From: an uncultured Desulfobacula sp.
GTDB taxonomy: Bacteria > Desulfobacterota > Desulfobacteria > Desulfobacterales > Desulfobacteraceae
Length of the DNA: 64,000 nucleotides
NCBI GenBank assembly: GCA_964619205.1
Contig: CAZUDE010000002.1
Location: 61,420 to 125,419, forward strand
Direction of reading: 5' to 3'
The notes beneath the pieces were generated by a model that saw nothing but the letters and a program-made list of their open reading frames with translations, ran no database searches and had not been told where the DNA came from. Both the position numbers and the translations under genes were made by a program. Shown here one piece after another: positions 4,349 to 54,528 of the stretch; the stretch's first letter is position 1; each line of letters begins with the position of its first letter.

Positions 4349-5559
4349 TGTTTCTTGAAACCGTCCTCATTGCCATGCGGGAAATCCGGCGAAATGTCAT
4401 GCGCTCCTCTCTTACGATTCTCGGGATTGTCATCGGCGTTGCAGCCGTTATTACCATGGTGACGGTCGGGGATGGCGCAACAAAACAGGTGGCCAATGAA
4501 ATATCAAGCCTTGGCAGCAACCTGCTTGATGTTCGTCCCGGTCAGAGTTTCCGGGGGCCGGGCGGAACCCGTTCCGGCGCTCCGATGTTTAAGATGGCCG
4601 ATGCAGAAGCCGTTGCAAGAGAAATTACCGGACTGGCCGGTGTCGCGCCTGTCACCAGCCGGGCGGTTCAGGCCATTCACGGGAACGACAATTGGGTGAC
4701 ACAGATTGCCGGAAGCACCAATGACTATCTCAAGGTCAGAAACTGGACCCTTGCCGGCGGACGCCTGTTCAATGAAGGCGAATTAAAGGGAGGGGCGGCT
4801 GTCTGCATTATCGGCGATACCATCAGAAAACAGTTTTTTGGCGCCCAGGACCCCGTCGGAAACACCATCCGTCTTGAAAAAATTTCCTGTCAGATCATCG
4901 GCATATTAAAACCCAAGGGGCAATCCGGTTTTGGAACGGATCAGGATGATTTTGTTCTCATGCCCCTGAAGACTGTTCAGCGGAGGATTACCGGTAACAC
5001 GGATATCTATTTTATCTCGGTATCGGCCATGGACGGGGTTTCAACGGAAAAGGTAAAGTCGGACATTGAACGTTTGATGCGGGAGCGGCGGCAGACCGGG
5101 AAAAATGAGGAGGATGATTTTAATGTCAGGGATATGCAGGAAATCGTCAAAACACTCACCGGAACAACCCGTCTGCTGACGACACTTCTTGGTGCCGTGG
5201 CTGCCGTCAGCCTTCTTGTGGGGGGAATCGGCATCATGAACATCATGCTGGTTTCGGTTACGGAGCGAACCCGCGAAATCGGCATCCGGCTTGCCATCGG
5301 CGCCATGGAGAAGCAGGTTCTCATGCAGTTTCTCATCGAGGCGGTGGTTCTTTCCTGTTTTGGCGGTATCATTGGAATCATTCTCGGCATTGCCGCATCT
5401 GTGGCAGGGGCAGGGGCCCTGAAGGTGCCTTTTATCCTGAACATGGGAATTGTTGTTGTTTCATTTGTATTTTCAGCCGGTGTAGGGGTTGTCTTTGGAT
5501 ATTTTCCGGCCAGAAAGGCGGCCCACCTTGATCCCATCGAAGCCCTCCGCCACGAATAA
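4345..5559 (+). CDS. ABC transporter permease (MacB/FtsX-type)
   Basis: RSSLTILGIVIGV, GGIGIMNIMLVSVTERTREIGIR, PARKAAHLDPIEALRHE. Confidence 0.95.
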   Translation: MMFLETVLIAMREIRRNVMRSSLTILGIVIGVAAVITMVTVGDGATKQVANEISSLGSNLLDVRPGQSFRGPGGTRSGAPMFKMADAEAVAREITGLAGVAPVTSRAVQAIHGNDNWVTQIAGSTNDYLKVRNWTLAGGRLFNEGELKGGAAVCIIGDTIRKQFFGAQDPVGNTIRLEKISCQIIGILKPKGQSGFGTDQDDFVLMPLKTVQRRITGNTDIYFISVSAMDGVSTEKVKSDIERLMRERRQTGKNEEDDFNVRDMQEIVKTLTGTTRLLTTLLGAVAAVSLLVGGIGIMNIMLVSVTERTREIGIRLAIGAMEKQVLMQFLIEAVVLSCFGGIIGIILGIAASVAGAGALKVPFILNMGIVVVSFVFSAGVGVVFGYFPARKAAHLDPIEALRHE

Positions 5560-5670
5560 CCCTATCGGGCAATCCCCTGGCTTTTTAATCAGCTTTTTGG
5601 CCCCGGCCCCTGAATCTCGGATTAATTTTGGATGGGCGTCCAGGGAAAAGCAAATTTTTCTTTTATTTTT

Positions 5671-5690
5671 TACGATACTAAGATATCGTA
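5671..5690. promoter_or_regulatory. Palindromic candidate operator TACGATA-N6-TATCGTA upstream of the MCP gene
   Basis: Perfect 7-bp inverted arms in an AT-rich intergenic region about 120 bp upstream of the MCP start. Confidence 0.4.
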
Positions 5691-5813
5691 CTGGATCAAG
5701 GTCACAATTTTTTCAAGGTTTTATAAAATTTATTCATTTTAGAGCGGATCAAAAGCGTTAAACTTTTGAGATAAGTCAGAAGATTGATTCTATCACTAAG
5801 GAGAGCGATTAAC

Positions 5814-7820
5814 ATGGACATGCTGAAAAATTTTACACTTAAGGCAAAATTAATTTGTGGATTTACCATTGTTCTGGTGCTGCTGGTGATTATTTCCGGG
5901 GTCAGCTATTTTGCATTGACCGAATCAAACAACGGATTTGAAAACTACAGTGAAATGGCAAGGGACAGTAATCTTTCCGGCCGGCTGCAGGCCGACATGC
6001 TCATGGTCCGGATGAATGTAAAGGATTTTATCATTACCGGAAGCGAAAAGGACGAAAAACAATACCAGGAGTATCATGACAGAATGACTGCCCTGATCGA
6101 GACTGCGAAAAAAGAAATCCAGAAACCGGAAAGGGCACAAAAAATTAAATTCATTGAAAACGAAGTGGATGACTACCATGAAGGATTCATGAAAATCGTT
6201 GAAATGAAAAATCAGAGAAACCATCTCTTTTTTGATATCCTGGACAAGGACGGCAGATCCATGGAAGAAAAACTGACCCGGATCATGACCTCTGCGGATA
6301 AGGATAATGATATTGAAGCTGCTTTCGAGGCAGGCCTTTCGCTTCGAAGCCTTTTGCTGGCAAGGCTTTATGTCACCCGGTTTCTGGAGACCAATGACCA
6401 GAAGGATGCCGATAGGGTGAATCTGGAAATTGAGGAACTGGAAAAGCATTTGAAATCCCTGGCTGCGCATCTTGAGAATCCGGAAAGAAAAAAACTGCTC
6501 CAGGAAATCAATGAAGCGGATAACGAATACCATAAAAGCTTTAATGAACTGGTTAAATTGATTTTTGAACGCAATCATATCATCTCGGGAACCCTGGACA
6601 GAATAGGACCTGAAATTGCTGCTGCCGTGGAATATGTGGCAACAGATATTAAAAAAGTTCAGGATGAAATCGGCCCCAGGCTTGAGGCGTCCAACAACCG
6701 GGCAGAGGGATTGATTCTGGTTTTGAGTATTTTTGCAGTTATTTCCGGCGGAATCTTTGTTTTTTTTCTTACCAAAAATGTGTTAAAACAACTGGGCTGT
6801 GATCCTTCCGTTTTGGCAGACATTGCCCGGAATATTTCCGAAGGGAATCTGCGGATATCATTTGAGGAACAGGGGAAAAATAAGATTCAAGGCGTGTATA
6901 AAGATATGGAAATCATGGCTGAAAAATTACGCAGAATGCTCAAGGATGTCACGGAAGGGGTAGGGACTTTGGCCTCTTCTTCCACAGAACTGTCTGCAAT
7001 ATCCGGTCAGATCACTTTGAATTCCGAGACAACCGTTGAAAAATCAAGTACTGTTGCCGCTGCTGCCGAAGAAATGAGCACTAATATGAACAGCGTGGCA
7101 GCTGCAACGGAACAGGCAACCGTTAATTTCCAGATGATTGTGTCTGCTGCCGAAGAGATGTCGGCAACCATCCAGGAAATTTCAAAGAATACGTCAAAGG
7201 GGAGCCAGATCACACAGAGCGCTGTTGAGAATGCCCGTGAAGCATCAGGAAAGGTGGACAATCTGGGCCGGGCGGCAAAGGAAATCACAAAAGTGACTGA
7301 AACCATTGCAGACATTTCCGAACAGACCAATCTTCTGGCCTTGAATGCCACCATTGAAGCGGCAAGGGCAGGGGAAGCCGGTAAAGGATTTGCCGTTGTG
7401 GCAGGCGAAATAAAAGCACTGGCCCTGCAGACCGCTCAGGCCACCAGCGAAATCAACCTGAAGATTTCCGGGGTACAGGATACATCAAGGGAAGCTGCAA
7501 CCGCGATTGAATCCATCGTGGGCATTATCAATGAGATTGATGAAATTGTCACCACGGTTGCCACTGCTGTTGAAGAGCAGTCTGCCACGACCCGTGAGAT
7601 TTCCAATAATGTTGCCCAGGCAGTAAGCGGAATACAGGAGGTCAATGACAATATGAACCAGATCTCTGCTGTTACAGGAGAAGTCACGCAGAATATTTCA
7701 GACGTGAGTCAGGCGGCCGAAGAAACCAGTTCCGGCAGCCGGCAGGTAAACGAGAGCGCCTTGGAATTGTCAAAACTGGCTGAGAAATTAAATCAGATGA
7801 CAGCTCAGTTCAAACTCTGA
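5814..7820 (+). CDS. Methyl-accepting chemotaxis protein
   Basis: Two TM segments around a periplasmic domain; [37 protein letters not shown] signalling hairpin; start chosen from the GGAG RBS (ORF open from 5784). Confidence 0.95.
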
Positions 7821-8821
7821 TGATAATGGATTTGACGGATAAAAACCAGGCCGCATCAAAAGGAAAAAATATGGAAAAAACCGACCTCCTTTTTGCCCAC
7901 GACCTTTACATGAGATTATCCGAGAATATCGAAACCGTAATCAAAGGCCAGAAGGAAAATATCCGCTATATCCTGGCCGGGTTTGCCGGCAGCGGGCATA
8001 TCCTTCTGGAAGACAATCCGGGAACAGGAAAAACCACCTTGGCCAAGGCGCTTGCCAAAAGCATGGATGCCCGGTTCAAACGCATCCAGTTTACTCCGGA
8101 TCTGTTGCCTTCGGATATCCTGGGGGTTTCCATCTTTGACCCGGCCAAAAAAGAGTTCAAGCTTCATAAGGGTCCGGTTTTTACCCATATTCTCCTGGCC
8201 GATGAGATCAACCGGGCCTCCCCGAGAACCCAGTCTGCGCTCCTGGAAGCCATGGCAGAGGGACAGGTGAGCATTGACGGCAGCCTTTTGAATCTGGAAG
8301 ATCTCTTTTTTGTCATTGCCACCCAGAATCCTGTTGAATCCAGAGGGACCTATCCTTTGCCCGAGGCCCAGATGGACCGGTTTGCCATGCAGCTTGAGCT
8401 TGGGTATGTAACAAGGGAAACCGAAGCACTGGTGTTGTCCGAACAGGGCCAAACCCATCCCATTCACCGGGTCTTGCCCTGCATGACCCTGGAAGAGGGC
8501 ATGAAACTTCGCAGGCTGGCAGGAGAGGTTTTTATTTCAAAAGAATTAAAAGACTATATTGTCACCCTTGTGACGACAACCCGGGAAAAACCCGGAGTTC
8601 TTCTCGGCGCAAGCCCAAGGGCCTCCATTGCGCTCATGAAGATCGCCCAGGCCCTGGCGCTTTTTGATAAAATGGACTTTGTCGGGCCGGATCATATTCA
8701 GGAAATAGCCGTCCGTGTCATTGCCCACAGGCTTATTTTAGACCCAAAGCTGAAGTTTTCCGGCGTATCCTCCCGGACCCTTGTGGAAGAGATATTAACA
8801 TCCGTTCCTGTCCCGGTATAA
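7820..8821 (+). CDS. MoxR-family AAA+ ATPase
   Basis: LEDNPGTGKT, RIQFTPDLLPSDI, LADEINRASPRTQSALLEAM, YPLPEAQMDRF; alternative start 7871. Confidence 0.95.
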   Translation: MIMDLTDKNQAASKGKNMEKTDLLFAHDLYMRLSENIETVIKGQKENIRYILAGFAGSGHILLEDNPGTGKTTLAKALAKSMDARFKRIQFTPDLLPSDILGVSIFDPAKKEFKLHKGPVFTHILLADEINRASPRTQSALLEAMAEGQVSIDGSLLNLEDLFFVIATQNPVESRGTYPLPEAQMDRFAMQLELGYVTRETEALVLSEQGQTHPIHRVLPCMTLEEGMKLRRLAGEVFISKELKDYIVTLVTTTREKPGVLLGASPRASIALMKIAQALALFDKMDFVGPDHIQEIAVRVIAHRLILDPKLKFSGVSSRTLVEEILTSVPVPV

Positions 8822-8837
8822 GAATGGTTTTTTAACC

Positions 8838-10196
8838 ATGACGGCAGCAAGGTTTTTATACCGGTCCTATTCTTTTTTTTATTCAGTTTCGTTTTGGCTG
8901 AAAAGGCATATTACGCCCGCCGGAATCATGATGACGATTATTTTTTCTGTGACCATGATCTCCGGGCTTAACATGTTTAAAACCACCCTTTACCAGGTTA
9001 TGACCGTCAGCTTTGCCGTTCTTTGTGTTTCAGCAGGCTTAAGCCTGATCCCTTTCAGGCTCAAGGCAAGGGTCAGGCATATCCTTCCTGAGTATGCCAC
9101 CGTAGGGGAAACGGTTTTTTATTCAATCGAAATCACCAATCTGACCCTGAAACCCCAGAAAGGGATCATCCTTTTTGAAGACACGGCTGATCCAAGACCG
9201 GATCTCAGCACCCTTTTGACACAAAAAGAGCCCTATGAGCATATAAGAAACGCCTGGGACAGGAAAACCCTGTATTACCGCTGGGTGTGGCTCTGTCTCA
9301 AAGCATCAAAGGCAAGGTTTCAGCCCATAAACCTGCCGGATCTCCTGCCCGGGGAAACCATCCGGGTTACATCCAAGTTTGTCCCCAATTATCGGGGATA
9401 TATCCATTTTACCGGGATAACCCTTGCAAGGCCGGATACTCTGGGGCTGTTCATGAGGCTTTTTCATATTAAAAAGATGGAAAAACTTCTGGTGCTGCCA
9501 AAGCGATACCCCATTTCACCGCCGGATTTAAGATCGCGGCGTCAATACCATGCCGGAGGGGTGAATCTTGCCTCCTCCATTGGAAATTCAGATGAATTCA
9601 TGTCGCTTCGGTATTACCGGCCCGGAGACCCCATGCGCAATATCCACTGGCGGACCTTTGCCAGAACCGGTGAACTCGTGATAAAGGAATTCGAGGATGA
9701 GTTTTTTGTGCGGCATGCCTTAATCCTGGATACTTTTGTCTCCCCGGAAAAAGATGATGTTTTTGAAGAAGCCGTAAGCATTGCCGCTTCCTATGCGGCT
9801 GCCGTGGAGCCCCGCGATGCCATCCTGGATCTGATATTTGCAGGCCAAAAGGTTTATTCTTTTTCATCGGGCAGGGGGCTTGGCAGCTCTGAAAAAATGC
9901 TTGAGGTGCTTTCCTGTGTGGAACCCTGCCAGGATAAAACCCTCCTGGAACTCAAACCCGTCCTTGAATCCGGTTTAAAGAAAATATCCGGGGCCATCTG
10001 CATTTTTTCAGGCTGGGAAAAAGCGCATGAAGACATATCCCGTATGATTCATGAGTCCCGGGTGCCTGCCTTTATCATTGTTCTTGCCGGGGACGATTCA
10101 CAAAAAGAGGATATCCTCGAAAAAACCCGGAATGCTTATCAGGAGATCCGGGTGGTCCGGGCGGGAAAAGTTTTGGAGGAGCTTTCAACCCTATGA
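8838..10196 (+). CDS. DUF58 domain-containing protein
   Basis: EFMSLRYYRPGDPMRNIHWRTFAR motif; follows MoxR. Confidence 0.9.
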   Translation: MTAARFLYRSYSFFYSVSFWLKRHITPAGIMMTIIFSVTMISGLNMFKTTLYQVMTVSFAVLCVSAGLSLIPFRLKARVRHILPEYATVGETVFYSIEITNLTLKPQKGIILFEDTADPRPDLSTLLTQKEPYEHIRNAWDRKTLYYRWVWLCLKASKARFQPINLPDLLPGETIRVTSKFVPNYRGYIHFTGITLARPDTLGLFMRLFHIKKMEKLLVLPKRYPISPPDLRSRRQYHAGGVNLASSIGNSDEFMSLRYYRPGDPMRNIHWRTFARTGELVIKEFEDEFFVRHALILDTFVSPEKDDVFEEAVSIAASYAAAVEPRDAILDLIFAGQKVYSFSSGRGLGSSEKMLEVLSCVEPCQDKTLLELKPVLESGLKKISGAICIFSGWEKAHEDISRMIHESRVPAFIIVLAGDDSQKEDILEKTRNAYQEIRVVRAGKVLEELSTL

Positions 10197-44443: not shown

Positions 44444-44674
44444 ATGACAAAAAAAATCAAATCTGAAAGAGATCTGGAAAAAGAGTATTCGAAAAAGGAT
44501 TTTGTTGCCAAATTAAGAAGGCTTGCCCATGCAATTGAACAGAATAACAGGTTCAGGATACAGGTCGCAGGGGAAAGGATTTCAGTCCCTCCAAATGCCA
44601 TTTTTAATATTGAGCATGAAAGAGAAGGAAATAATGAAGAAATTGAATTTCAGTTGAAATGGGTGAAATCTTAA
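44444..44674 (+). CDS. Amphi-Trp domain-containing protein
   Basis: KLRRLAHAIE..FRIQVAGERISVP..EHERE..EEIEFQLKW. Confidence 0.85.
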   Translation: MTKKIKSERDLEKEYSKKDFVAKLRRLAHAIEQNNRFRIQVAGERISVPPNAIFNIEHEREGNNEEIEFQLKWVKS

Positions 44675-44700: not shown

Positions 44701-45270
44701 TCCGATCATGACCGCAAACCCGTTTGATCCGTTGTCAAGAACATTCAATGCAGTCCTGGTCATTTTTTCCAGTGTGGGGACACTGGACAGCATGGGGGCC
44801 TCCCTCACTTCGGCCCTGCCGGAGTGTTGAACCGTTTTTTACCACACCAAAGACCTTGTCCGGTGTATTTCCGGAAACCAGGGTTTTGAATTCAGCTTTG
44901 GCCTGGACAAGCTGCCACGCGTTCACACCGTTATTCAAGTCTTCCCAAGCCCCCTTGCCGCCCACATAATTACAGCTGGGGGCTGGCTGGCGCTGTGGCT
45001 GTTCGGGTTGCAGCGGTATGTGGCTTCCAGACCCAGTTCAGAAAAATTGGAAACGGTTTTGCCGCCGTTAAGGCTGATGGATTCCATCTTGCCTTGAGGA
45101 GAATACAGGTAGATCTCAGCCAGTGTAGTCTTGCTGTTGTCGCTGACCCGTTTCAGGAGAGTGGTGTCCAGGTAAAATTCATAGTTCAGGGTTTTAAAAA
45201 GCACCTTGTTTTTTTGTGACGGCCTTGGAGGCCAGGCGTCCTGCAGGGTCGCAGGCATAGGAGGCGGACT
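44701..45270 (-). pseudogene. Frameshifted chimeric remnant: YD-repeat-like fragment followed by an alkaline phosphatase fragment
   Basis: Across frames: SYACDPAGRLASKAV / TLNYEFYLDTTLLKRVSD (YD-like); NYVGGKGAWEDL..WQLVQAKAEF..TLRQGRS and VPTLEKMTRTALNVLDNGSNGFAVMI (PhoA-type PTLxEMT..GFxLMIE segment). Confidence 0.5.
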
Positions 45271-45393: not shown

Positions 45394-45615
45394 ATGCAAC
45401 ATATAGATATCAGCCAGGTTAAACAATATTTGCCGCAAATCTTTGAAAAAGATATTCATGAAGACATTATCATAACAAAACAAGGATTGCCGATTGCTAA
45501 AATTATCGGCATATCAAAGCAAAAAAAACAACGGCAATTCGGCTCGGCAAAAGGACTCATTAAAATGTCTGATGATTTTGAAGAACCCTTGGAAGATTTT
45601 AAGGAGTATATGTAA
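45394..45615 (+). CDS. Type II antitoxin, Phd/YefM-like with RQFGSAKG..DDFEEPL tail
   Basis: IIITKQGLPIAKI motif; overlaps the start of a PIN-toxin gene. Confidence 0.85.
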   Translation: MQHIDISQVKQYLPQIFEKDIHEDIIITKQGLPIAKIIGISKQKKQRQFGSAKGLIKMSDDFEEPLEDFKEYM

Positions 45616-46001
45616 TGCAGGCCTTGCTGGATACAAAAGCCTTTCTCTGGTTTATTTCCGGTAGCGACCGACTCAGCAGCAAAGCCCGTAATTATATAGC
45701 AGATTTTGAAAACGATATAGTCATAAGCGCTGCAAGCCTCTGGGAGATCGCCATAAAAACAAGTCTGGGCAAGCTTGAGCTACTCAGCCCCTTTGATCAG
45801 CTCATTCCGTCCCAGCTTGAAAAAAATTCCATTGCCACATTATCCATAGAGCTGACCCATCTCACAAAAACCATTGACCTTGAGTTCCATCACAGGGACC
45901 CCTTTGACCGGCTGATTATTGCCCAGGGGATCACAGAAAAAATACCCATCATCACAAGTGATGCCGTATTCGCCAAATATCCGGTTGATATTCTTTGGTA
46001 A
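45615..46001 (+). CDS. vapC: Type II toxin, PIN domain (VapC)
   Basis: LLDT..LW, SAASLWEIAIK, HRDPFDRLIIAQ, ITSD. Confidence 0.92.
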   Translation: MQALLDTKAFLWFISGSDRLSSKARNYIADFENDIVISAASLWEIAIKTSLGKLELLSPFDQLIPSQLEKNSIATLSIELTHLTKTIDLEFHHRDPFDRLIIAQGITEKIPIITSDAVFAKYPVDILW

Positions 46002-46247: not shown

Positions 46248-46823
46248 TCAGTTTAGCCAGACATATTTAAACTTTTTATTTTTAATATCCCAAAAATAAG
46301 CTTTATCACCATCAGCATCATAATGGAAAAAGACAATTGATTCGTTCGCTATTACTATTTCTTCCATTTCCGAGCCTTCTTCTCCACAATCAACAAGGCC
46401 TTTCCCACATGCTGTAAGATATTTTCCTGGGGGCAATGTTTTTATCCCATAATACAAAAAATAGCCTTTAATATAACTATCAAAATTTGGATACTCTTTG
46501 AATCCATCGATTAAATTTGGATCTGTTGTTGTATCAAAAAGTTTGTGTTGAGAAAAACCTTGTGGGTCATATAAAAACACATATATAGATATCCCTATTT
46601 GATTTTTATTTTCTAAAATATATGCAAAATCTAAATGACCATCACCATTAAAATCTCCTTCGCATTGAAGATATAATTTTTTATCCTCTTTTCTCCAATG
46701 CTGAAAAAAACTACTATCTTCTAGCGTTTTCCAATCATCTGGAAAAATGATTTTTGTTTCAGCATATAAATTGATAGCCATAAAAACACCCAATATGAAG
46801 ATAAAAATCAAAATTTTTTTCAT
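46248..46823 (-). CDS. Exported AT-rich hypothetical protein, candidate immunity protein of the upstream Rhs toxin
   Basis: Signal peptide MKKILIFIFILGVFMAINLYA; GDFNGDGHLDFA; 36 bp downstream of the Rhs C-terminal fragment; visibly lower GC than the flanks. Confidence 0.7.
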   Translation of the reverse strand: MKKILIFIFILGVFMAINLYAETKIIFPDDWKTLEDSSFFQHWRKEDKKLYLQCEGDFNGDGHLDFAYILENKNQIGISIYVFLYDPQGFSQHKLFDTTTDPNLIDGFKEYPNFDSYIKGYFLYYGIKTLPPGKYLTACGKGLVDCGEEGSEMEEIVIANESIVFFHYDADGDKAYFWDIKNKKFKYVWLN

Positions 46824-46859
46824 TTTTTATATGTCCTTTCCCCTTATAAAACAAAGGCG

Positions 46860-47627
46860 CTATTTTACAGATTTTCCATTACTATCTCTTAGGCCCTTCC
46901 CCCAACCTGTGACATTGTCTTTTCCTGGTGCTGTTTGAAAATGGAAACATCTTTCTTCCTCAATTGCATAGCTATTATTGACATCAAAACAATTTTTATA
47001 TGCGGCTTCTATTTCCTTTGCAGTTAATGATGAATTATTTTTTTTACCTAAGTCGGCGGCTTTTCCTTTGCCATGTTTACCATCATCTCCGGGCCTAAGA
47101 CCTGAGGTAACCTCGATGTCCTTTTCTATTTCTTCAGCAATACACTGCATACATTCTTGTGTTTTTTGATCTGGTTTTAAAACTTCTGTTGAATATGTAA
47201 CGCTATAATTAGGAATTTCTAATGCAATAGAACTAAGGTCGGAAGGCGGATCATATCCCGGAGCCCCCCCACCTCTACATCCTCTCATACTGCCAAACGA
47301 ATAACCGCCCGGGCCTTCGTCGCCAAGCCCCGGTCCATTATCTCCTCCTGTGTGATGCCCAGTCGGATCAGTATAGATAAGAGGATTATTCAGGCAATAT
47401 GTATACCGGTTAATACTCTGAGGATTAAACGGATCGGGCACGATCGTATCGGCCATGACAAATTGGCCGAGGTTGGGGTAGTAGTACTGGGCATCATAGT
47501 TGTAGAGGCCGGTGCTGGCATCCTGTTCCTGGTCTGTATATTTGTAAGCGCTTTGATTTAAAAGAGCGTTTGTACTTCTATCCGGACCATAGGGCAAATA
47601 GTCGCCCCTGTCAATAATGGCTTTAAC
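46860..47627 (-). pseudogene. Orphan Rhs core/C-terminal toxin fragment with M15 (Hedgehog/DD-peptidase)-like domain
   Basis: In-frame ..IDRGDYLPYG..YKYTDQEQDASTGLYNY..NRYTYCLNNPLIYTDPTG; stop immediately upstream and no proper start; C-terminus VTSGLR..HGKGKAAD..CFHFQ. Confidence 0.85.
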
Positions 47628-47747
47628 CTATCAAACATTATTTAACCGATGGCTTTCTGAACGGTGAAGATTATGCTTTATTTCCTGACAAAATTAATAA
47701 AAGAGGCTCTCTAACAGTGTTTTTTATAATAAAAACTTGATCGGAAT

Positions 47748-48365
47748 CTATCCCAATATAAACATCTCACCATAGGCAGGCCTTATCTGAAACAGATCTT
47801 TTAAGGGAATTTTGAGGATATGGCAGAGGATCACACGGAGCACGCCGGCATGGGTAACAATTAATATTTTTTCTTTTTTCCCGGAAATGCATTTGTTAAA
47901 AAAGGGGATAACCCGGTCCGAGAGATCCTGAAAACTTTCACCATCAGGCGGACGATAGGTGGAAAGGCTTCCCCCCCTTTTTTGAAACTCTTCAGGATAA
48001 TGGGTTTTTATTTCTTCAAAAGTCCTGCCGTCCCATTCTCCCATGTTGATTTCATTTAAGGCGTCGGCATTTACGACAGGCACTCCTCCGGCTATGCGGC
48101 GGACGGTCCGGTCACAGCGCTTAAGGCGGCTTGAATAGATGATATCCAAAGGAAATCCTGAAAAGCTTTTCTGCCAGTAGCGGGACTGGCGTTTTCCCTC
48201 ATCATCAAGATCCGTGTCTGTCATACCGACAAACCGTTTTTCTTCATGACCTTTAATCCGGCCGTGTCTCAGAAGAAAAATCAGGGAATCATCTTGAGAG
48301 TATTTCTTTAATGGATTTCCCGGCCGATGATTCAATTCTGGCCTGTATGAGTTGAGTATTTTCAT
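47748..48365 (-). CDS. Histidine phosphatase family protein (CobC/PGAM-like)
   Basis: LLRHG, SSRLKRC, EINMGEWDG, IVTHAGV. Confidence 0.92.
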   Translation of the reverse strand: MKILNSYRPELNHRPGNPLKKYSQDDSLIFLLRHGRIKGHEEKRFVGMTDTDLDDEGKRQSRYWQKSFSGFPLDIIYSSRLKRCDRTVRRIAGGVPVVNADALNEINMGEWDGRTFEEIKTHYPEEFQKRGGSLSTYRPPDGESFQDLSDRVIPFFNKCISGKKEKILIVTHAGVLRVILCHILKIPLKDLFQIRPAYGEMFILG

Positions 48366-49404
48366 ATCTCTTTGAAATGCTGTTCATGGCCCAAGGGGAT
48401 TTCATGAGGCAGTCTGCAAACCGTTTGTGATAATTTAAGTCAAGCCCATGCCCGTTGCAGATTTTATCTGCAAAATAAACGACTTCAGTTTCGCGGACCT
48501 GGGTATGATGACCCAGTTCAATGTCCATGTGCTGGGCAACAATTTCTGCCACTTCGCTGAAGCCGAGGCAATCCAGAATCCTGGCTCCGGATTCGGCATG
48601 ATTTTTTTCTTTTCTTTTTATATCATGGAGAAGCCCTGCGGCGATTATAAGATCCGAATCTACTTTATCTGAAATGGAATGGGCGATTTTCAAGGCTGTA
48701 AAGGACACATCTGCCAGGTGGGATCTGATGGCGGTGTCATCCCCCAATATGTCATTGATAATGGAAAGGCATTCTTCTTTATCCGGAATATGAAGGGATA
48801 TAAATTTTTTAAGAACTTTTTCATATCCTTTTTTATCATCTGCATCCATTATGGTTCCCCGGTCATGGACGTTTACGGGAATTGTCCGGTTCTCCCATGA
48901 CAAAAAGAGATCCCTCAGGGTTGATCCACTGGAAAGATTTAAGATATCGCTTTTAAGCCGGGAAGGAATGAGGGGAGGGTGGCCGGGGGTTCTGTCAAAG
49001 TTTGGAATGAGGATCTGATCCCGGGTCTCATTGAATTTTTTAATCAAACCGTCAATGGTGGCGGGGCGGATTGCAGGTATATCTACCGGAAGAAGGAAAA
49101 AGCCGGTATTCTCAGGCCGGATATTTCTGACTCCTTTTTGAATGGAAGACAGCATCCCGGACTTGAAATCCGGGTTAAAGACCGGCAGAGCCCCGGCATT
49201 TCTGACAACTGGATCGAGTTCAATGCGGTTATGACCGGTCACCACGATGATATCCGTGATATGGTTGGCTTTGAACAGATGAATGACCTGCTCGATCATG
49301 GTTTTATCCCCAAAGGGCAGCAAAGGTTTAAAATCCTTCATCCTGGAGGAAAAACCGGCGGCGGGAATGACGACTGAAAGGTGTTTTGTTATGATGCTGT
49401 TCAT
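48289..49404 (-). CDS. MobA/MocA-like nucleotidyltransferase fused to an HD domain
   Basis: IPAAGFSSRMKDFKPLL, LLPVDIP, GHPPLI; C-terminal H..LLHDI..HAESG. Confidence 0.88.
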   Translation of the reverse strand: MNSIITKHLSVVIPAAGFSSRMKDFKPLLPFGDKTMIEQVIHLFKANHITDIIVVTGHNRIELDPVVRNAGALPVFNPDFKSGMLSSIQKGVRNIRPENTGFFLLPVDIPAIRPATIDGLIKKFNETRDQILIPNFDRTPGHPPLIPSRLKSDILNLSSGSTLRDLFLSWENRTIPVNVHDRGTIMDADDKKGYEKVLKKFISLHIPDKEECLSIINDILGDDTAIRSHLADVSFTALKIAHSISDKVDSDLIIAAGLLHDIKRKEKNHAESGARILDCLGFSEVAEIVAQHMDIELGHHTQVRETEVVYFADKICNGHGLDLNYHKRFADCLMKSPWAMNSISKRYENTQLIQARIESSAGKSIKEILSR

Positions 49405-49415
49405 TTTTCCTCCGG

Positions 49416-50456
49416 CTATTTTCCGAAGCTGCAATTTGGGAATCTACATGTGCCGCAACTGGAGCAGAATCCGCCGTGGCCCATGGCAATGATGTCTGTT
49501 TTGGTCACGGTTTCGCCGGCCAGAAGTCTTGGCACCACCAGATCAAAAATAGACGCCCGGTGGTACATAACGCATCCGGGCAGCCCGATGACGGGAATAT
49601 CGTTGATATAGGCCAGCATGAACATGGCTCCGGGAAGAACCGGGGCACCGTAGGAAACAATCTCTCCCCCGGCGGCCTTGATGGCCGCCGGTGTAAGATC
49701 ATCCGGGTCCACGGACATGCCGCCCGTCATGGCAATCATTTCTGCACCTTCATCCATGAGCGTTCTGATGGCAGACACGGTCATGGGCAGAGCATCGGAT
49801 ACAATTTCTTTTCTCAGGATACGGCTTCCCAGGGCCTCAAATTTTTTTTGAACCACAGGCCCGAACCCGTCCCTGATCCTGCCATGGTAAACTTCCGAGC
49901 CGGTTATAACAAGTCCCACAGCCAGTTTTGAAAAGGGGCGGATGTCGATGATGGGAAAGTATTGCCTGCAGATATCCTCGGCTTCAATAATCCGGGTTTC
50001 ATCAATGAACAAGGGAATGATCCGTGTGCCGGCAAGTTCCTGTCCTTTTTCCACGATCTGACCGGTATGAAGGGTGGCAAAAATCACATCCGGAACTGAA
50101 TTGAGTTTTTCAAGACCCGGTAAATTGATTTTCAGCAGGCCTTGTTTTGAGGCTTTAAACCCGACTTTTCCCTCTTTGGGGGCAGTGATGGAAATTCCAT
50201 AACCCAGGGCAGCCTTGGCAATTCTGACGGCTGCTTCATTTTCATGAATTTCACCGTTGAGGCAGACCACATAAATATGCTGCTTTCCTAAATCCAGGAG
50301 GGCTCCCACATCAGTTTCAGTGATGATATGGCCTTTTTTAAACCAGGGCCCCTTGAAAAGATCGGGGACAATCCGGGTTATGTCATGGAGCAGGATTTTC
50401 CCAACTGCTTCTTTAACCGGTACAGCAGTTACCTGATCTTTTTCATCATATTTCAT
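49416..50456 (-). CDS. Molybdopterin-binding protein (MoeA/MogA-like) with C-terminal Cys cluster
   Basis: ITGSEVYHGRIRD, TGGMSVDPDDLTP, PVLPGAMF, GLPGC, GGFCSSCGTCRFPNCSFGK; ORF open from 50549. Confidence 0.85.
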   Translation of the reverse strand: MKYDEKDQVTAVPVKEAVGKILLHDITRIVPDLFKGPWFKKGHIITETDVGALLDLGKQHIYVVCLNGEIHENEAAVRIAKAALGYGISITAPKEGKVGFKASKQGLLKINLPGLEKLNSVPDVIFATLHTGQIVEKGQELAGTRIIPLFIDETRIIEAEDICRQYFPIIDIRPFSKLAVGLVITGSEVYHGRIRDGFGPVVQKKFEALGSRILRKEIVSDALPMTVSAIRTLMDEGAEMIAMTGGMSVDPDDLTPAAIKAAGGEIVSYGAPVLPGAMFMLAYINDIPVIGLPGCVMYHRASIFDLVVPRLLAGETVTKTDIIAMGHGGFCSSCGTCRFPNCSFGK

Positions 50457-50545
50457 TCTTCTTCCTTTGCCCTTTGAATGAGACTTTTGATTGTCATCCT
50501 CTTGGGGATGGTTTCCTTTATTCCGTTCAATTGAACCATCATGAT

Positions 50546-50776
50546 TCAAATCCTTTTAAATGCTTTGCATTCCGGGTTGGGTTTAAGATCCAGGCATTGA
50601 ATTCTCATATCCAGGCCACAAATTCTAATCATCCGGTTTTCAAGCGGTTTTCCGATGCCCAGAAGCAGTTTAATGGTTCCCATGGCCTTGGAAGGATGCA
50701 GCCGTTCCTGACCAGCGGGGTCGATTTCGGGAAGGATGATCTGGCGGTTATATCTCTGACCGTCCATCCTTGGCAT
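50546..50776 (-). pseudogene. moeB: Internally deleted MoeB/ThiF-family gene
   Basis: N-terminal RYNRQIILPEI..GQERL joined directly to C-terminal IKLLLGIGKPLENRM..LKPNPEC; nucleotide-binding core absent. Confidence 0.75.
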
Positions 50777-53141
50777 GGTTATTTAATATTATTTTTTCAT
50801 TATATTCCTGGATTGCGTTGTATACCCGTTCCGGAGTCAGGGGCAGTTCATAAAGCCTGACTCCGGCGGCATCATACACCGCGTTCAGGATAGCCGGTAT
50901 GGTGGGCATGATGGCCCCTTCGCCGACTTCTTTGGCCCCGTATGGTCCGTTGGGTTCATCGCTTTCCACCACAATGGCTTCAACCTTTGGCATATCCATG
51001 GAGGTCACGATTTTATATTCTGCAAGATCATGATTCAGCACCCGGCCCTGATTGTCGAAGATGACTTCTTCATGCATGGCTTCGCCGATTCCCATGGACA
51101 CGGAACCCTGCATCTGGCCTTCAACCGATGTCAGGTTGATGGCCTTGCCGCAATCATGGGCGTCCGTGATCTTATCAATGGTAACCTGCCCGGTTTCCAT
51201 GTCCACGGTAACTTCAGCCACCTGGGCGGAACATCCATAAGCCGGAGAGGTTCCGACAGCAGCGCCTTTGAATTTACCGCCCAGGAGACTGGGTTTATAT
51301 TTTCCGGTTCCCACAATAGAGCCTTTTTCAAGGAAGGCGATCCTGGATGCTTCTTTAAAGGTCAGCTTTTCAGAAGCCGGATTATCATTCCATCCTCTGT
51401 GTTCCTTGATATACCGGGTTCTCAATTCTGAGAAATCCGGGGATGTTCCCTTGAATTCAATAAATCCGTTTCGGATATCCATGGTCTCAACAGGTGTTTT
51501 AAGTTGCCCGGCAAGGACTTCCAGGACCTGGATTTTTGCATGATAGGCAGCTTCTTTGGTGGCATGACCTGTCATTAAGGTCTGGCGGCTGGAATAGGCA
51601 CCCAGATCAACGCCCATATCCGTATCACCCGAGGCCAGTCTGATATTTTCCAAGGGAATGCCAAGGGTTTCAGCCGCAATCATGGCAAAGGCTGTGTCCG
51701 ATCCCTGGCCGATTTCGGCAGATGCGGTATAAACCAGGGCGGTTCCGCCGTCTTCAGTAAGTTTGACAATGACGGTTCCGTGCCAGGTATCAGATCGGTA
51801 AATGGGGTAACCCGCGCCGGATACAAAGAACCCGCAGGCCATACCGATCCCTTTTCCCTTGGGCATATTGCCTTTTTTTTTGTCCCAGTCCGATCCTTTC
51901 CGGACCGCCTCAATGCATTCCGACATGCCGAATGAACTCATGTTCAGATCGTTGCAGGTGGTGTCTCCGGTTTCCATCATGTTTTTAATTCGAAGCGCCA
52001 TGGGGTCCATACCGATTTTTTGGGCAATCATGTCCAGCTGCTGTTCAAAGCAGGCCCGGGCAATAACCGCCCCATGGCCCCGCTGGGCACCGCAGGCCGG
52101 TTTGTTGTTATATACGCGGTATCCGTCATAGCTCATGTTGTCGAGTTTATATGGTCCGCCCAAAAGGGAACCGGTATAATACACTGTTGCGATTCCAAAA
52201 CTGGTGTAGGCACCTCCGTCAAGCCAGCATTCATGCTTCAGGGCCATGAGGGTTCCGTCTTTTTTGGCGCCGGTGGTAATGGTATGGGAAAACTGGTGTC
52301 TGGCCCGTGCCAGCATGAAAACCTGATCCCTGGTATAATTCATTTTCACGGGTTTTTTTGTCTTTTTTGCAAGAAGACAGCAGGCCAGTTCCATGGGGTT
52401 GGCCGAGGCCTTGATGCCGAAGCCTGCACCCACATAAGGTTTGATCACCCGGACCTTTCCGATATCCATGCCCAGCACCATGGCCACGGTACGCTGGACA
52501 TAGTGGGGAACCTGGGTGGAGCTGGTCAGGGTCAATACGCCCAGATTATCAAATTCGGCAATACACCCCTGCATCTCTATAAATGCCCCGTCCTGGCGTT
52601 TGTTCTTCATTTTGGTGGTGATAACGATGTCGCTGTTTTTCAGGCCTTCTTCCACATTCCCGAATTCCTGGTGAACTTCGGCACACAGGTTTTTCAAAGA
52701 CCCTTCATGGAGTTGGGGAGCATCTTCTTTCATGGCGTCTTCAATGGTAAAAACAGCCGGAAGAATTTCATATTCCACTTTTATCAGTTCTACAGCGGCA
52801 AGAGCGATATCTATCGATTCAGCTGCCACGGCTGCAATTTCATCTCCGACATAGCGGACTTTTTCCAAGGCAAAAACGGTTTCATCATACCGGGCCGGGC
52901 TGACACCATATTTAATGCTGCCTGCATCCTTTGAGGTAATAACGGCTTTAACTCCTTTGAGTTTTTCAGCCGCCGACGTATCAATGGAAATGATTCTTGC
53001 GTGGGCATGGGGACTTTGCAGCAAGGCACCGTATAACATGCCAGGTCGCGAAATATCATCTACAAATACAGCTCTTCCGGTTGCCTTGTCCGGCGTATCA
53101 ATGCGGTTTGCCCGAGTGCTGATAATATCAAATTTTTTCAT
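50748..53141 (-). CDS. hcrA: Xanthine-oxidase-family molybdopterin subunit, 4-hydroxybenzoyl-CoA reductase alpha-like
   Basis: SPHAHARI, TQVPHYV, GAQRGHG (HCR-type RGHG), AEIGQG, GAYSSR, VEGQMQG, GPYGAKEVGEG. Confidence 0.75.
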   Translation of the reverse strand: MKKFDIISTRANRIDTPDKATGRAVFVDDISRPGMLYGALLQSPHAHARIISIDTSAAEKLKGVKAVITSKDAGSIKYGVSPARYDETVFALEKVRYVGDEIAAVAAESIDIALAAVELIKVEYEILPAVFTIEDAMKEDAPQLHEGSLKNLCAEVHQEFGNVEEGLKNSDIVITTKMKNKRQDGAFIEMQGCIAEFDNLGVLTLTSSTQVPHYVQRTVAMVLGMDIGKVRVIKPYVGAGFGIKASANPMELACCLLAKKTKKPVKMNYTRDQVFMLARARHQFSHTITTGAKKDGTLMALKHECWLDGGAYTSFGIATVYYTGSLLGGPYKLDNMSYDGYRVYNNKPACGAQRGHGAVIARACFEQQLDMIAQKIGMDPMALRIKNMMETGDTTCNDLNMSSFGMSECIEAVRKGSDWDKKKGNMPKGKGIGMACGFFVSGAGYPIYRSDTWHGTVIVKLTEDGGTALVYTASAEIGQGSDTAFAMIAAETLGIPLENIRLASGDTDMGVDLGAYSSRQTLMTGHATKEAAYHAKIQVLEVLAGQLKTPVETMDIRNGFIEFKGTSPDFSELRTRYIKEHRGWNDNPASEKLTFKEASRIAFLEKGSIVGTGKYKPSLLGGKFKGAAVGTSPAYGCSAQVAEVTVDMETGQVTIDKITDAHDCGKAINLTSVEGQMQGSVSMGIGEAMHEEVIFDNQGRVLNHDLAEYKIVTSMDMPKVEAIVVESDEPNGPYGAKEVGEGAIMPTIPAILNAVYDAAGVRLYELPLTPERVYNAIQEYNEKIILNNHAKDGRSEI

Positions 53142-53167
53142 GGATCCTCCTTGGGGTGATCGCTCTG

Positions 53168-53626
53168 TTATGATCTTAGGGATTCGATGGCTTCAAAAAT
53201 TTTTGTATATCCTGTACACCGGCAAAGGTTTCCGGAAATACCTTCCCGTATTTCCTGTTCTGAGGGTTTCGGGTTTTTATCCAGAAGGCTTTTGGTGGAC
53301 ATGATCATTCCGGGTGTGCAAAATCCGCATTGAATAGCCCCTTTTTCAACAAAGGCGTTTTGAATCGGATGAATTCCTTTATCCGTGCTCAATCCTTCAA
53401 CGGTCTCAATTTTTGATCCATTGGCCTGGACTGCAAGGACAAGACAGGAATTGACCGGGTCTCCATCCATAATTACAGTACAGGCACCGCAGTCGCCGGT
53501 GTCGCAGCCTTTTTTGGTGCCAGTCAGCTTGAGGTCATAGCGCAGCAGATCCGCAAGGGTTTTATTGGACTCAACGGCAATCTCACAGGCCAGTTGATTG
53601 ACGGTCAGAGTGATTATTTTTTTCAT
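53168..53626 (-). CDS. Xanthine-oxidase-family 2x[2Fe-2S] subunit (HcrC/CoxS-like)
   Basis: GCDTGDCGACTV..NSC, QCGFC, NLCRCTGY. Confidence 0.93.
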   Translation of the reverse strand: MKKIITLTVNQLACEIAVESNKTLADLLRYDLKLTGTKKGCDTGDCGACTVIMDGDPVNSCLVLAVQANGSKIETVEGLSTDKGIHPIQNAFVEKGAIQCGFCTPGMIMSTKSLLDKNPKPSEQEIREGISGNLCRCTGYTKIFEAIESLRS

Positions 53627-53640
53627 TTATGTCTCCTGTT

Positions 53641-54528
53641 CTATATCATGCATTTTGCGGCCAGTTCAAATGCGGCTGCAAGGGTTCGTTTGGTCAGAAC
53701 TCCAACCATGGCACGTCTATAAGCGGCGCTGCCCCTGAAATCATCAATGGGTTTGCAATCTTCAAATCTCGCAATTTCACCGGCTTCATAAAATGTTGGG
53801 TCTTCTGCGACTCTGTCCTTGAGAAGCGCTTCTGCTTTTAACGACCGGATAGGGGTGGCCGCAACAGAACCAAGGGCAATCCTGGCACAAAGTATTTTTT
53901 TTGTTTTTGGTTCAACTTCAAGAAAGGAAGCCACATTCACCACATTAATCTCGGAAGATTTTCGTTTTCCTAGCTGTATATAATGCGCTCCGCTTCGGGT
54001 CGGCGGTATAGGAAGCCTGAAACCCGTGATAATTTCATCCGCCTTGATATCTGTCCTTCCCGGACCTTTAAAAAAATTTTCTATGGGAACCTCCCGCTTT
54101 CCTCCCAGACTTTCCAGCAGAACAACTGCTTTATAAATTAAAAGGGCAGGAAGGGAATCACCGGCCGGGCTTGCATTGCAAACATTCCCGCCAATGGTGG
54201 CCCGGTTTCGGATCAAATGGGTACCGATGTTATCAACCCCGGATTTCAGGGCAGAAAATTTTTCACTGATGAGGGGTGTTCCTGTAATTTTTGCCATGGT
54301 TGCACAGGCCCCAATTTCCACGGACACCTTTAGATTCCTGATCTGAGCCAGAGGTTCAATTCTCTGGAGGCTGATAATATGGTCTGTGGTGATAATCTTT
54401 TTTTTCAGATGAACCAGAAGATCTGTCCCTCCTGCCAGAAGCCTTGCAGAAGGACCCATTTTTTTTTTAAGCTCCAACGCCTTTTTAATGGTTACGGGTT
54501 CATGAAATTCAAACTTAGGTAAAAGCAT
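53641..54528 (-). CDS. Xanthine-oxidase-family FAD subunit (CoxM/HcrB-like, no [4Fe-4S] insert)
   Basis: AGGTDL, IRNRATIGGNVCNASPAGD, DFRGSAAYRR. Confidence 0.92.
   Translation of the reverse strand: MLLPKFEFHEPVTIKKALELKKKMGPSARLLAGGTDLLVHLKKKIITTDHIISLQRIEPLAQIRNLKVSVEIGACATMAKITGTPLISEKFSALKSGVDNIGTHLIRNRATIGGNVCNASPAGDSLPALLIYKAVVLLESLGGKREVPIENFFKGPGRTDIKADEIITGFRLPIPPTRSGAHYIQLGKRKSSEINVVNVASFLEVEPKTKKILCARIALGSVAATPIRSLKAEALLKDRVAEDPTFYEAGEIARFEDCKPIDDFRGSAAYRRAMVGVLTKRTLAAAFELAAKCMI

Follow-up and report, generated by a model that had tools for sequence, protein, structure and literature searches.

An orphan Rhs C-terminal module with a predicted LAS-fold peptidase tip and a putative exported immunity protein in an uncultured Desulfobacula

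Characterized enterobacterial orphan Rhs tips are known as cytoplasmic nucleases. The modules that encode orphan tips (rhs-CT/rhsI, in which CT denotes the C-terminal part), for example Salmonella Typhimurium LT2 STM0292, and their revival by recombination are already known (PMC3967940, PMC3150448). They consist of the end of an Rhs core up to a DPxG motif and a variable tip, lack normal translation initiation and export signals, are followed immediately by a small cognate immunity gene, and are more AT-rich in the tip and immunity gene than in the core. Here we describe a module with all of these features on the minus strand, between positions 46248 and 47627, of a 64,000-nucleotide stretch of DNA from an uncultured Desulfobacula sp. 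(contig CAZUDE010000002.1; the whole stretch is referred to as the window). Unlike the enterobacterial orphans, the window module has no "main" rhs gene ahead of it and no other Rhs sequence in the 64 kb; it is flanked by a VapBC module and by genes of cofactor metabolism. It also has a degenerate autoprotease motif and a toxin for which a periplasmic site of action is predicted. The module is probably an orphan Rhs-CT/immunity cassette in which the tip, a predicted zinc peptidase of the LAS (lysostaphin/DD-peptidase/Hedgehog) fold, would cut peptidoglycan and the product of the next gene would be exported and block it.

Peptidoglycan-targeting polymorphic toxins and effectors of type VI and type IV secretion systems (T6SS and T4SS) use cell wall hydrolases as interbacterial weapons, as is predicted here, and their immunity proteins are periplasmic and often lipoproteins; the immunity protein of the window is likewise predicted to be exported. 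The Rhs-linked L,D-peptidase tips of Zhang et al. 2012 have the unrelated YkuD fold, and that large catalogue of polymorphic toxin domains makes no mention of M15, carboxypeptidase, or DD-peptidase tips (PMC3482391). The VanY-like toxin heads of Burroughs et al. 2025 belong to a different delivery system (PMC12419801).

The open frame of the module runs from 47627, directly after two stop codons, to the stop codon at 46860-46862. It reads VKAIIDRGDYLPYG...NPLIYTDPTGH, followed by a Gly/Pro-rich stretch and then a C-terminal domain, and translation confirmed, on the minus strand, the features that a first-pass annotation of this DNA had listed. The first part of the frame (47355..47627) comprises the last ~90 residues of an Rhs core, the C-terminal plug or aspartyl autoprotease region, and ends in PLIYTDPTGH. 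Residues 10-91 matched TIGR03696 (RHS repeat-associated core) at an E value of 7.2e-19 and 68.1 bits, against a cut-off of 32.5. This sequence match is far beyond chance, and the Rhs core remnant is real. In sequence comparisons the remnant also matched the YenC2, TccC3, RhsA-type/T6SS Rhs, and SGS1 chains in the PDB, and it is 59% identical to the core end of the Rhs homologue P0006. It has the PxxxxDPxG(L/H) ending of an Rhs C-terminal module, and a toxin domain after DPxG and a small same-strand immunity gene downstream make up the rest of such a module. The GC content is 45.8% in the core remnant, 36.5% in the toxin domain, and 29.3% in the next gene (46248-46823), compared with 46.4% in the whole window. 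In-frame core similarity upstream of the stop codons, to 47717, came from one weak tblastn alignment, and other Rhs copies in the metagenomes break at 47614-47620; this segment was not counted as part of the remnant.

The core is joined to the tip by a Gly/Pro-rich low-complexity linker of 50 residues (HHTGGDNGPGLGDEGPGG...; 47208..47357, minus strand), which is not conserved among homologues. The toxin domain (46860..47207, minus strand) has 115 residues followed by the stop codon and matched no Pfam, NCBIfam, or PADLOC model. A word-indexed protein search with the domain found nothing. When 1.84 billion cluster representatives were searched exhaustively with HMMER, 41 relatives came out at an E value of <= 0.001, 11 of them at <= 1e-10, counted as 50%-identity cluster representatives. 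Nearly all relatives have the domain at the extreme C terminus, and of the 42 proteins checked, 26 carry it directly behind an Rhs PxxxxDPxG motif, which makes it a polymorphic-toxin tip. One of these 26 is a 2204-residue YD-repeat protein with a signal peptide. When the alignment of the near branch was used in a locus search, only one contig of a Desulfatiglans metagenome-assembled genome (MAG) and two metagenome contigs were returned. A match in Nitrosomonas europaea (locus L009), which sits in a TonB-receptor-like gene, was rejected as a false positive.

In an alignment of 30 diverse members of the family, only five columns are invariant (H45, A50, D52, H89, and Q91 in domain numbering), and T34, G48, G54, N58, E84, and a C-terminal G-F..G are near-invariant. 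The branch that includes the window domain has the motif TSG(Y/F/L)R...H-x4-A-x-D...E-E-x-x-(C/A/W)-(F/Y)-H-F-Q. In the sister branch, the textbook LAS motifs S-x-H-x-x-G-x-A-x-D and H-(F/Y)-H-x-Q occur together with four conserved Cys residues. In the window the frame of the toxin domain is uninterrupted and every invariant and near-branch-invariant residue is kept.

The first-pass annotation had seen in this domain the zinc-ligand layout of M15/Hedgehog-DD peptidases, and the structural comparisons bore this out. AlphaFold2 run on the 30-member alignment gave a mean predicted local distance difference test (pLDDT) score of 95.8 and a predicted template modeling score of 0.88, with all five models above 94 in pLDDT. 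A fold search with the model against BFVD (predicted viral structures) returned "Peptidase M15A, C-terminal," "Peptidase M15," and "Murein endopeptidase K" at the top, with a probability of 1.0, query template modeling (TM) scores of 0.58-0.66, and E values of 2.8e-5 to 1e-3. In the PDB, structures of pneumococcal VldE (MT3 catalytic domain) took the first five places among the fold matches, with a probability of up to 0.89 and a TM score of ~0.5, ahead of the LysECD7 and RB49 L-alanoyl-D-glutamate peptidases. VldE was also the best sequence match of the window domain in the PDB (E value of 1.6e-5), and the family profile matched Hedgehog N-domains (E value of 0.009), VldE, and T5 endolysin, an L-Ala-D-Glu peptidase. 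The Pfam models M15_3, VanY, and M15_4 were touched by 4, 2, and 1 of the 30 relatives, respectively, all below cut-off. These independent lines, from the model and from sequence, agree that the fold is LAS (clan MD), M15-like.

The predicted active site consists of SGLR (47094-47105), HGKGKAAD (47052-47075), a conserved Glu (46956-46958), and CFHFQ (46935-46949), all on the minus strand. The zinc ligands are predicted to be the His at 47073-47075 and the Asp at 47052-47054 of HGKGKAAD and the His at 46941-46943 of CFHFQ. The LAS triad H-x(3-6)-D ... H is thus present as conserved residues, and these three residues, already proposed as ligands in the first-pass annotation, are three of the five invariant columns in the 30 relatives. 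The second LAS motif, H-x-H (or the E-x-x-H of VanX/VanY), is absent from the window domain, which reads C-F-H at this point; the sister branch has H-[FY]-H. The context of the third ligand had been called non-canonical, and it is, but the deviation lies in C-x-H in place of the LAS H-x-H and not in an ExxxH motif. In the branch of the window the conserved Glu sits 5 residues ahead of the ligand His. Since a Glu is the general base in VanX/VanY-type M15 enzymes, we infer by analogy that this Glu may act as the general base here.

VldE, the closest solved relative, is a zinc-dependent peptidoglycan L,D-endopeptidase that cuts the L-Ala/D-iGlx bond of cross-linked stem peptides (PMC11667670). 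The ligands of its catalytic zinc are H301, D308, and H375; S291 and R294 polarize and stabilize the scissile carbonyl, D297 fixes R294, and H370, D372, and H373, ahead of the ligand H375, are each essential (PMC11667670). The S-x2-R-x2-D-x3-H-x6-D spacing of VldE (S291, R294, D297, H301, and D308) is identical in the window domain, which reads SGLRPGDDGKHGKGKAAD where VldE reads SGYRPGDSGDHGKGLAID, and the two proteins share the S-x2-R-x2-D-x3-H-x2-G-x-A-x-D block, the LAS fold, and a third His ligand near the C terminus. On the other hand, they are only ~27-32% identical, with a TM score of ~0.5, and the H370-x-D372-H373-x-H375 cluster and zinc-zipper loop of VldE are replaced in the window domain by E-E-x-x-C-F-H-F-Q. 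VldE is, moreover, no toxin: it is an autolysin of the housekeeping or stress kind, carries a LysM domain, and has no immunity partner. The M15 family (VanX, VanY, M15A/MepK-type, and phage L-Ala-D-Glu endolysins such as T5 EndoT5) and the Hedgehog N-domains have the same fold with the H-x6-D ... H triad on equivalent secondary-structure elements, whereas the invariant Gln after the last His (H-F-Q) and the C-terminal PG(R/K)GGxTGFxPG(L/I)R tail are specific to the toxin family.

The next gene (46248..46823, minus strand) begins 36 nucleotides after the toxin stop codon and encodes a 191-amino-acid protein that is predicted to be exported. Its start at 46823 is preceded by a good Shine-Dalgarno sequence, and the protein begins MKKILIFIFILGVFMAINLYA. 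By inspection, a Sec-type signal peptide is encoded at 46761-46823, and the protein contains a Ca-binding-type loop, DFNGDGHLD (46629-46655), and a conserved Cys pair, CGKGLVDC (46386-46409). The gene is therefore AT-rich and has a signal peptide, as the first-pass annotation had described.

Three relatives of this protein, at 41-44% identity, were found in an indexed protein database, and walking downstream of the toxin homologues found five more. In six other independent loci (L001-3, which includes the Desulfatiglans MAG, and L010, L011, L012, L014, and L016), an immunity homologue (32-44% identical over the alignment) lies 3-66 nucleotides after a homologous toxin, and the pair recurs in groundwater and sediment-type metagenomes. 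The partnered toxins in these loci are Rhs-fused, truncated, or stand-alone. In L010 the toxin ends a 573-amino-acid Rhs open reading frame (ORF) and the immunity homologue is downstream. In L011 (158-1319) a stand-alone toxin of 188 amino acids has its own lipoprotein-like leader (…AAVAACLGG) and is followed by the immunity homologue; the domain is therefore also used outside Rhs proteins. In L012 a truncated toxin of 103 amino acids and its immunity gene belong to an orphan Rhs cassette array (5001-9846) beside IS66/IS21 transposase genes, in which they are followed by two more Rhs-core fragments that have in common a tip region of another kind, with a small gene after each. Because its homologues directly follow related toxins in the six loci, the downstream gene is, as judged by sequence, most likely the cognate exported immunity gene, and the toxin-immunity pair proposed by the first-pass annotation is supported.

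The seven full-length immunity homologues have a hydrophobic N-terminal leader, several of these ending in Cys; for P0002, the gene call omits most of the leader. Common to all eight homologues are a DxxxDGxxD loop, a Cys-x6-7-Cys pair, and F(F/Y)(H/Q)xDAGG. For all pairs but the closest, the immunity proteins are 31-47% identical and the toxins 37-67%, so that the immunity protein diverges faster. The correlation between toxin and immunity identities was not used as evidence for coevolution, as the Pearson coefficient of 0.69 was driven by one close pair and the Spearman coefficient was 0.36 (p 0.10). The protein matched no curated family above cut-off. A DxNxDGxxD calcium-loop-like motif is common to the window immunity protein and to proteins of the FG-GAP and XAC2610 types, XAC2610 being the immunity protein of the X-Tfe/X-Tfi pair XAC2609/XAC2610. 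Membership in either family was rejected: XAC2610 (NF047539) scored 21.8 bits against 35 in one of the eight homologues, with the likeness confined to the loop, and FG-GAP_3 scored 19.8 against 26.9. Depending on the model, these below-cut-off FG-GAP/XAC2610 matches occur in one or two of the eight members. Together with the lack of a family assignment and a poor structure model (pLDDT of 54, built from four sequences), for which the fold search gave nothing meaningful, they could be taken to mean that the gene encodes an unrelated exported or accessory protein that travels with the toxin. We consider this quite improbable, as the gene has the same position and strand directly after the toxin stop codon in seven loci with varied upstream architectures, including orphan-array cassettes; it diverges faster than the toxin, as is typical of immunity genes; and its compartment fits the predicted target.

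The exported partner and the toxin homologue with its own export signal place the predicted site of action outside the cytoplasm, and this inferred location argues against a VanX-like cytoplasmic activity. A LAS-fold tip could nevertheless have a target other than mature peptidoglycan, either a cytoplasmic precursor, as for a VanX-like D-Ala-D-Ala dipeptidase, or a protein or lipoprotein. Such a target would be in keeping with most characterized Rhs tips, which act in the cytoplasm. The LAS/M15 superfamily includes the VanX dipeptidases and Hedgehog, the substrate of which is unknown; the sister branch of the tip family matches Hedgehog N-domains best (E value of 7.5e-4); and the catalytic motif departs from that of VldE (CxH, with Glu in place of His). 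Yet a cytoplasmic toxin would need a cytoplasmic immunity protein, whereas the seven full-length immunity homologues have an export signal and all eight have the Cys pair. The stand-alone toxin homologue has a lipoprotein-type signal, and the nearest relatives by sequence and by fold are cell wall hydrolases. A different target is thus unlikely.

The favored reading is a tip that would cut peptidoglycan. In the proposed mechanism, zinc would be held by His47073, Asp47052, and His46941 (numbered by the first bases of the codons), and the active site would be completed by the Ser and Arg of SGLR together with the conserved Glu that precedes the last His. A full-length Rhs protein with this tip would deliver it to the periplasm of a neighboring cell, where the released tip would cut a stem-peptide bond of peptidoglycan and weaken the wall. 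By analogy with VldE, the cut would most likely be of the L,D type, such as at L-Ala-D-iGlu. In kin cells the exported immunity protein would bind and block the toxin in the periplasm.

Several observations weigh against this mechanism. Besides the cytoplasmic action of most characterized Rhs tips and the poor model of the immunity protein, the tip protein of the window matched no Pfam family at an E value of up to 1, including the M15 models PF01427, PF02557, PF05951, PF08291, and PF13539, and the PDB fold matches are weak by E value (0.06, at TM ~0.5). Where LAS enzymes have the first His of HxH, the window domain has Cys and close relatives have Cys, Ala, or Trp; the corresponding H373 is essential in VldE. 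At the positions of the essential H370, D372, and H373 of VldE, the window domain has E, R, and C; this equivalence is positional only, counted back from the ligand His, as the HMMER alignment stops short of the motif. Finally, a TTG start codon with a weak Shine-Dalgarno sequence is present at 47597, and the fragment might for that reason be translated.

That TTG (47595..47597, minus strand) is the sole candidate start codon in the Rhs-tip frame between 47627 and 46860, which contains no ATG. It lies 7 nucleotides downstream of AGGGG and would give a product of 245 amino acids, which gene callers predict in several assemblies. The first-pass description of the core as start-less therefore holds with respect to ATG and to the missing delivery region, but a TTG start is available. 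A promoter-like TTGACA-17-TATGGT at 47614-47586, which overlaps the TTG, matches the consensus only, and promoter-like sites are not enriched (9, compared with 7.0 +/- 3.1 in shuffled sequence).

As in orphan rhs-CT/rhsI modules, neither the YD-repeat shell nor the N-terminal delivery region is retained, and a normal start is missing. Using tblastn with seven Rhs proteins, we found no other Rhs/YD sequence in the 64-kb window, and the gene upstream on the same strand encodes a His_Phos_1 histidine phosphatase. Within the window, therefore, the module is an orphan with no main rhs gene to which it could belong. On its other side is a convergent VapBC-type addiction module on the plus strand (45394-46001), composed of a VapB-like antitoxin (DUF2281; TA_VapB E value of 8e-16; phd_fam above cut-off) and a PIN toxin (PIN domain E value of 7e-14), in agreement with the first-pass view of an orphan module beside a Phd-VapC system. 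The ATG start of the PIN gene at 45615 abuts the antitoxin stop codon or overlaps it by its last base (45613-45615 by the ORF list).

The presence of the TTG start, AGGGG, and the promoter-like site, the gene-caller predictions, and the adjoining VapBC module would fit a different role, in which the fragment is translated from TTG 47597 and acts with the next gene as an internal toxin-antitoxin-like module instead of a stored weapon. Orphan Rhs of Salmonella have been reported to behave as type II toxin-antitoxin modules (PMC7043789). Such a role is highly unlikely for the window module: the toxin has no signal peptide and its partner is exported, which would put the two in different compartments; a peptidoglycan peptidase has no target in the cytoplasm; and promoter-like sites are no commoner than in shuffled sequence.

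Rhs and TcC proteins release the tip by an aspartyl autoprotease built from two DP..G motifs. In the window the first motif is degenerate and reads AQYYYPNLGQF (47460..47492, minus strand) where ARLYDPxxGRF is expected, and the second, DPTG (47358..47369, minus strand), which is the cleavage motif at the core-tip boundary, is retained. Aligned with the ...harlydpdigrf... of PDB chains, the first motif is Q-Y-Y-Y-P-N-L-G-Q instead of R-L-Y-D-P-x-x-G-R, and a Tyr codon (47478-47480) stands in place of the first catalytic Asp. The first-pass annotation had noticed the YDAQYYYP deviation, which is present; it is not a harmless variant but removes the first Asp of the dyad, while the second is kept. 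In RhsA, a change of either Asp (D1324 or D1346) blocks cleavage and killing (PMC8765631; PMC8636562). We take D1324 to be the Asp of the first YDP motif on the basis of spacing and PMC8636562. Homologous tips on Rhs proteins retain RLYDP in the first motif, and related contigs in the metagenomes read RLYDPVLG or ARLYDPTIG, with the matching to the window stopping exactly at the QYYYP patch. By sequence, the motif is lost in the window copy alone, and related Rhs genes in the same metagenomes keep the first Asp.

With a broken autoprotease motif and without an Rhs shell or any signal for delivery or secretion, the toxin part would be silent or harmless here, and cytoplasmic if made at all. The immunity gene would most likely be the part under selection, giving protection from the same toxin fired by neighbors. 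The toxin domain would then be an intact spare that could be redeployed only by recombination with an rhs gene of full length, and the rescuing crossover would have to fall in the ~100 nucleotides between the broken motif and DPTG. Alternatively, the toxin part may be a decaying pseudogene beyond revival, with only the exported orphan immunity gene of any consequence. The in-frame stops just upstream, the lack of an ATG, the absence of an rhs partner within 64 kb, and the loss of the first autoprotease Asp and its flanking Arg residues only in the window copy, where related contigs stop matching, all fit this alternative, and the core-end copies in the metagenomes, at only 80-92% identity, would be a poor substrate for homologous recombination. 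Against it, the uninterrupted toxin frame with all of its conserved residues argues against long neutral decay, a crossover in those ~100 nucleotides would bypass the defect, and in Salmonella, recombination has been shown to bring orphan tips back into use (PMC3967940). We hold irreversible decay to be possible, if doubtful, and favor the intact spare.

Contigs of the groundwater metagenomes that contain this locus were aligned onto the region. The core end (47355-47620) is common to many contigs at 80-92% identity, with a summed depth of ~60 compared with 7 for this genome, and these contigs split into at least five different continuations at the DPxG boundary (47355/47365). The core-end repeat with varied tips was seen in two unrelated studies (groundwater and freshwater). 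Upstream of 47614, related contigs continue as Rhs core, and one loose end translates to ...AISGADGIV.... Given the various tips that follow a shared core end from the DPxG boundary on, a polymorphic Rhs system with exchangeable tips is, on this sequence evidence, present in the community and possibly in this genome. A second copy of 47574-47731 (~89% identical, at the same depth as this genome) was found on contigs of 816-826 nucleotides in runs X1 and X2. It comprises the 5' junction of the orphan and ~115 nucleotides of AT-rich upstream noncoding DNA, diverges at 47731, and suggests that this genome or a sister genome has another cassette junction of a similar kind at a different site.

Upstream of the module, the genes at 47748-54528 (minus strand) form a molybdenum-cofactor/xanthine-dehydrogenase-family cluster that encodes the His_Phos_1 phosphatase, a MobA-like NTP transferase fused to an HD domain, a MoeA-like protein, and a three-subunit Mo-hydroxylase (MoCoBD, 2Fe-2S, and FAD). 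With its listed TTG start, the MobA-HD gene would extend 77 nucleotides into the phosphatase gene, and this start is probably too far upstream. Beyond the VapB/PIN pair are genes for an amphi-Trp protein, a short-chain dehydrogenase/reductase, and an iron/B12-type ATP-binding cassette transporter. The amphi-Trp gene (44444-44674, plus strand; TIGR04354 E value of 9.5e-13) is small and lies just outside the islet. The segment 45040-45215, within an ORF of 107 amino acids and no family (44935-45258, minus strand), has a GC content of 53% and, in the groundwater runs, a contig depth 2-3x that of the flanking DNA. The extra depth is carried by short diverged contigs, and the segment, which had no Rfam match, looks like a multicopy element or gene fragment. 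The adjacent ORF (44735-44965, minus strand) may be the same gene as that at 44935-45258, broken by a frameshift. No direct or inverted repeats that would delimit an island were found around the module, and no tRNA or Rfam family was found in the window.

The sister branch of the tip family, which carries VTxGxEGGHSxGSAHxxGQAxD, HxH, and the four conserved Cys, has the N-domains of Indian and Sonic Hedgehog as its best sequence matches in the PDB, ahead of all bacterial peptidases, whereas the branch of the window matches the MT3/VldE L,D-endopeptidases best; the family might bridge two branches of the LAS superfamily. Bacterial Hedgehog-like domains were reportedly placed by Roelink in 2018 at the C termini of hypothetical proteins, and a toxin-system origin has already been proposed for the Hint half of Hedgehog and for SuFu. 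If the bacterial Hedgehog-like C termini are also toxin tips, the signaling half of Hedgehog would descend from interbacterial toxin systems. Such a descent is very doubtful because bacteria are known to have Hedgehog-like proteins that are much closer (PMC6027127).

This locus leaves the overall view of polymorphic toxin systems as it was, and LAS/M15 cell wall peptidases are already well known. What the module adds to the Rhs repertoire is a defined, testable toxin/immunity family, in which neither the toxin nor the ~190-residue immunity protein has a curated model, and one of the few Rhs tips predicted to be periplasmic and to act on the wall. The broken autoprotease motif in an otherwise intact cassette provides an example of the aging of an orphan module. 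With Glu ... C/A/W-x-H-x-Q where HxH would be expected, the predicted catalytic motif is a naturally occurring variation on the VldE/M15 active site and could reveal which residues of this fold catalysis truly needs.

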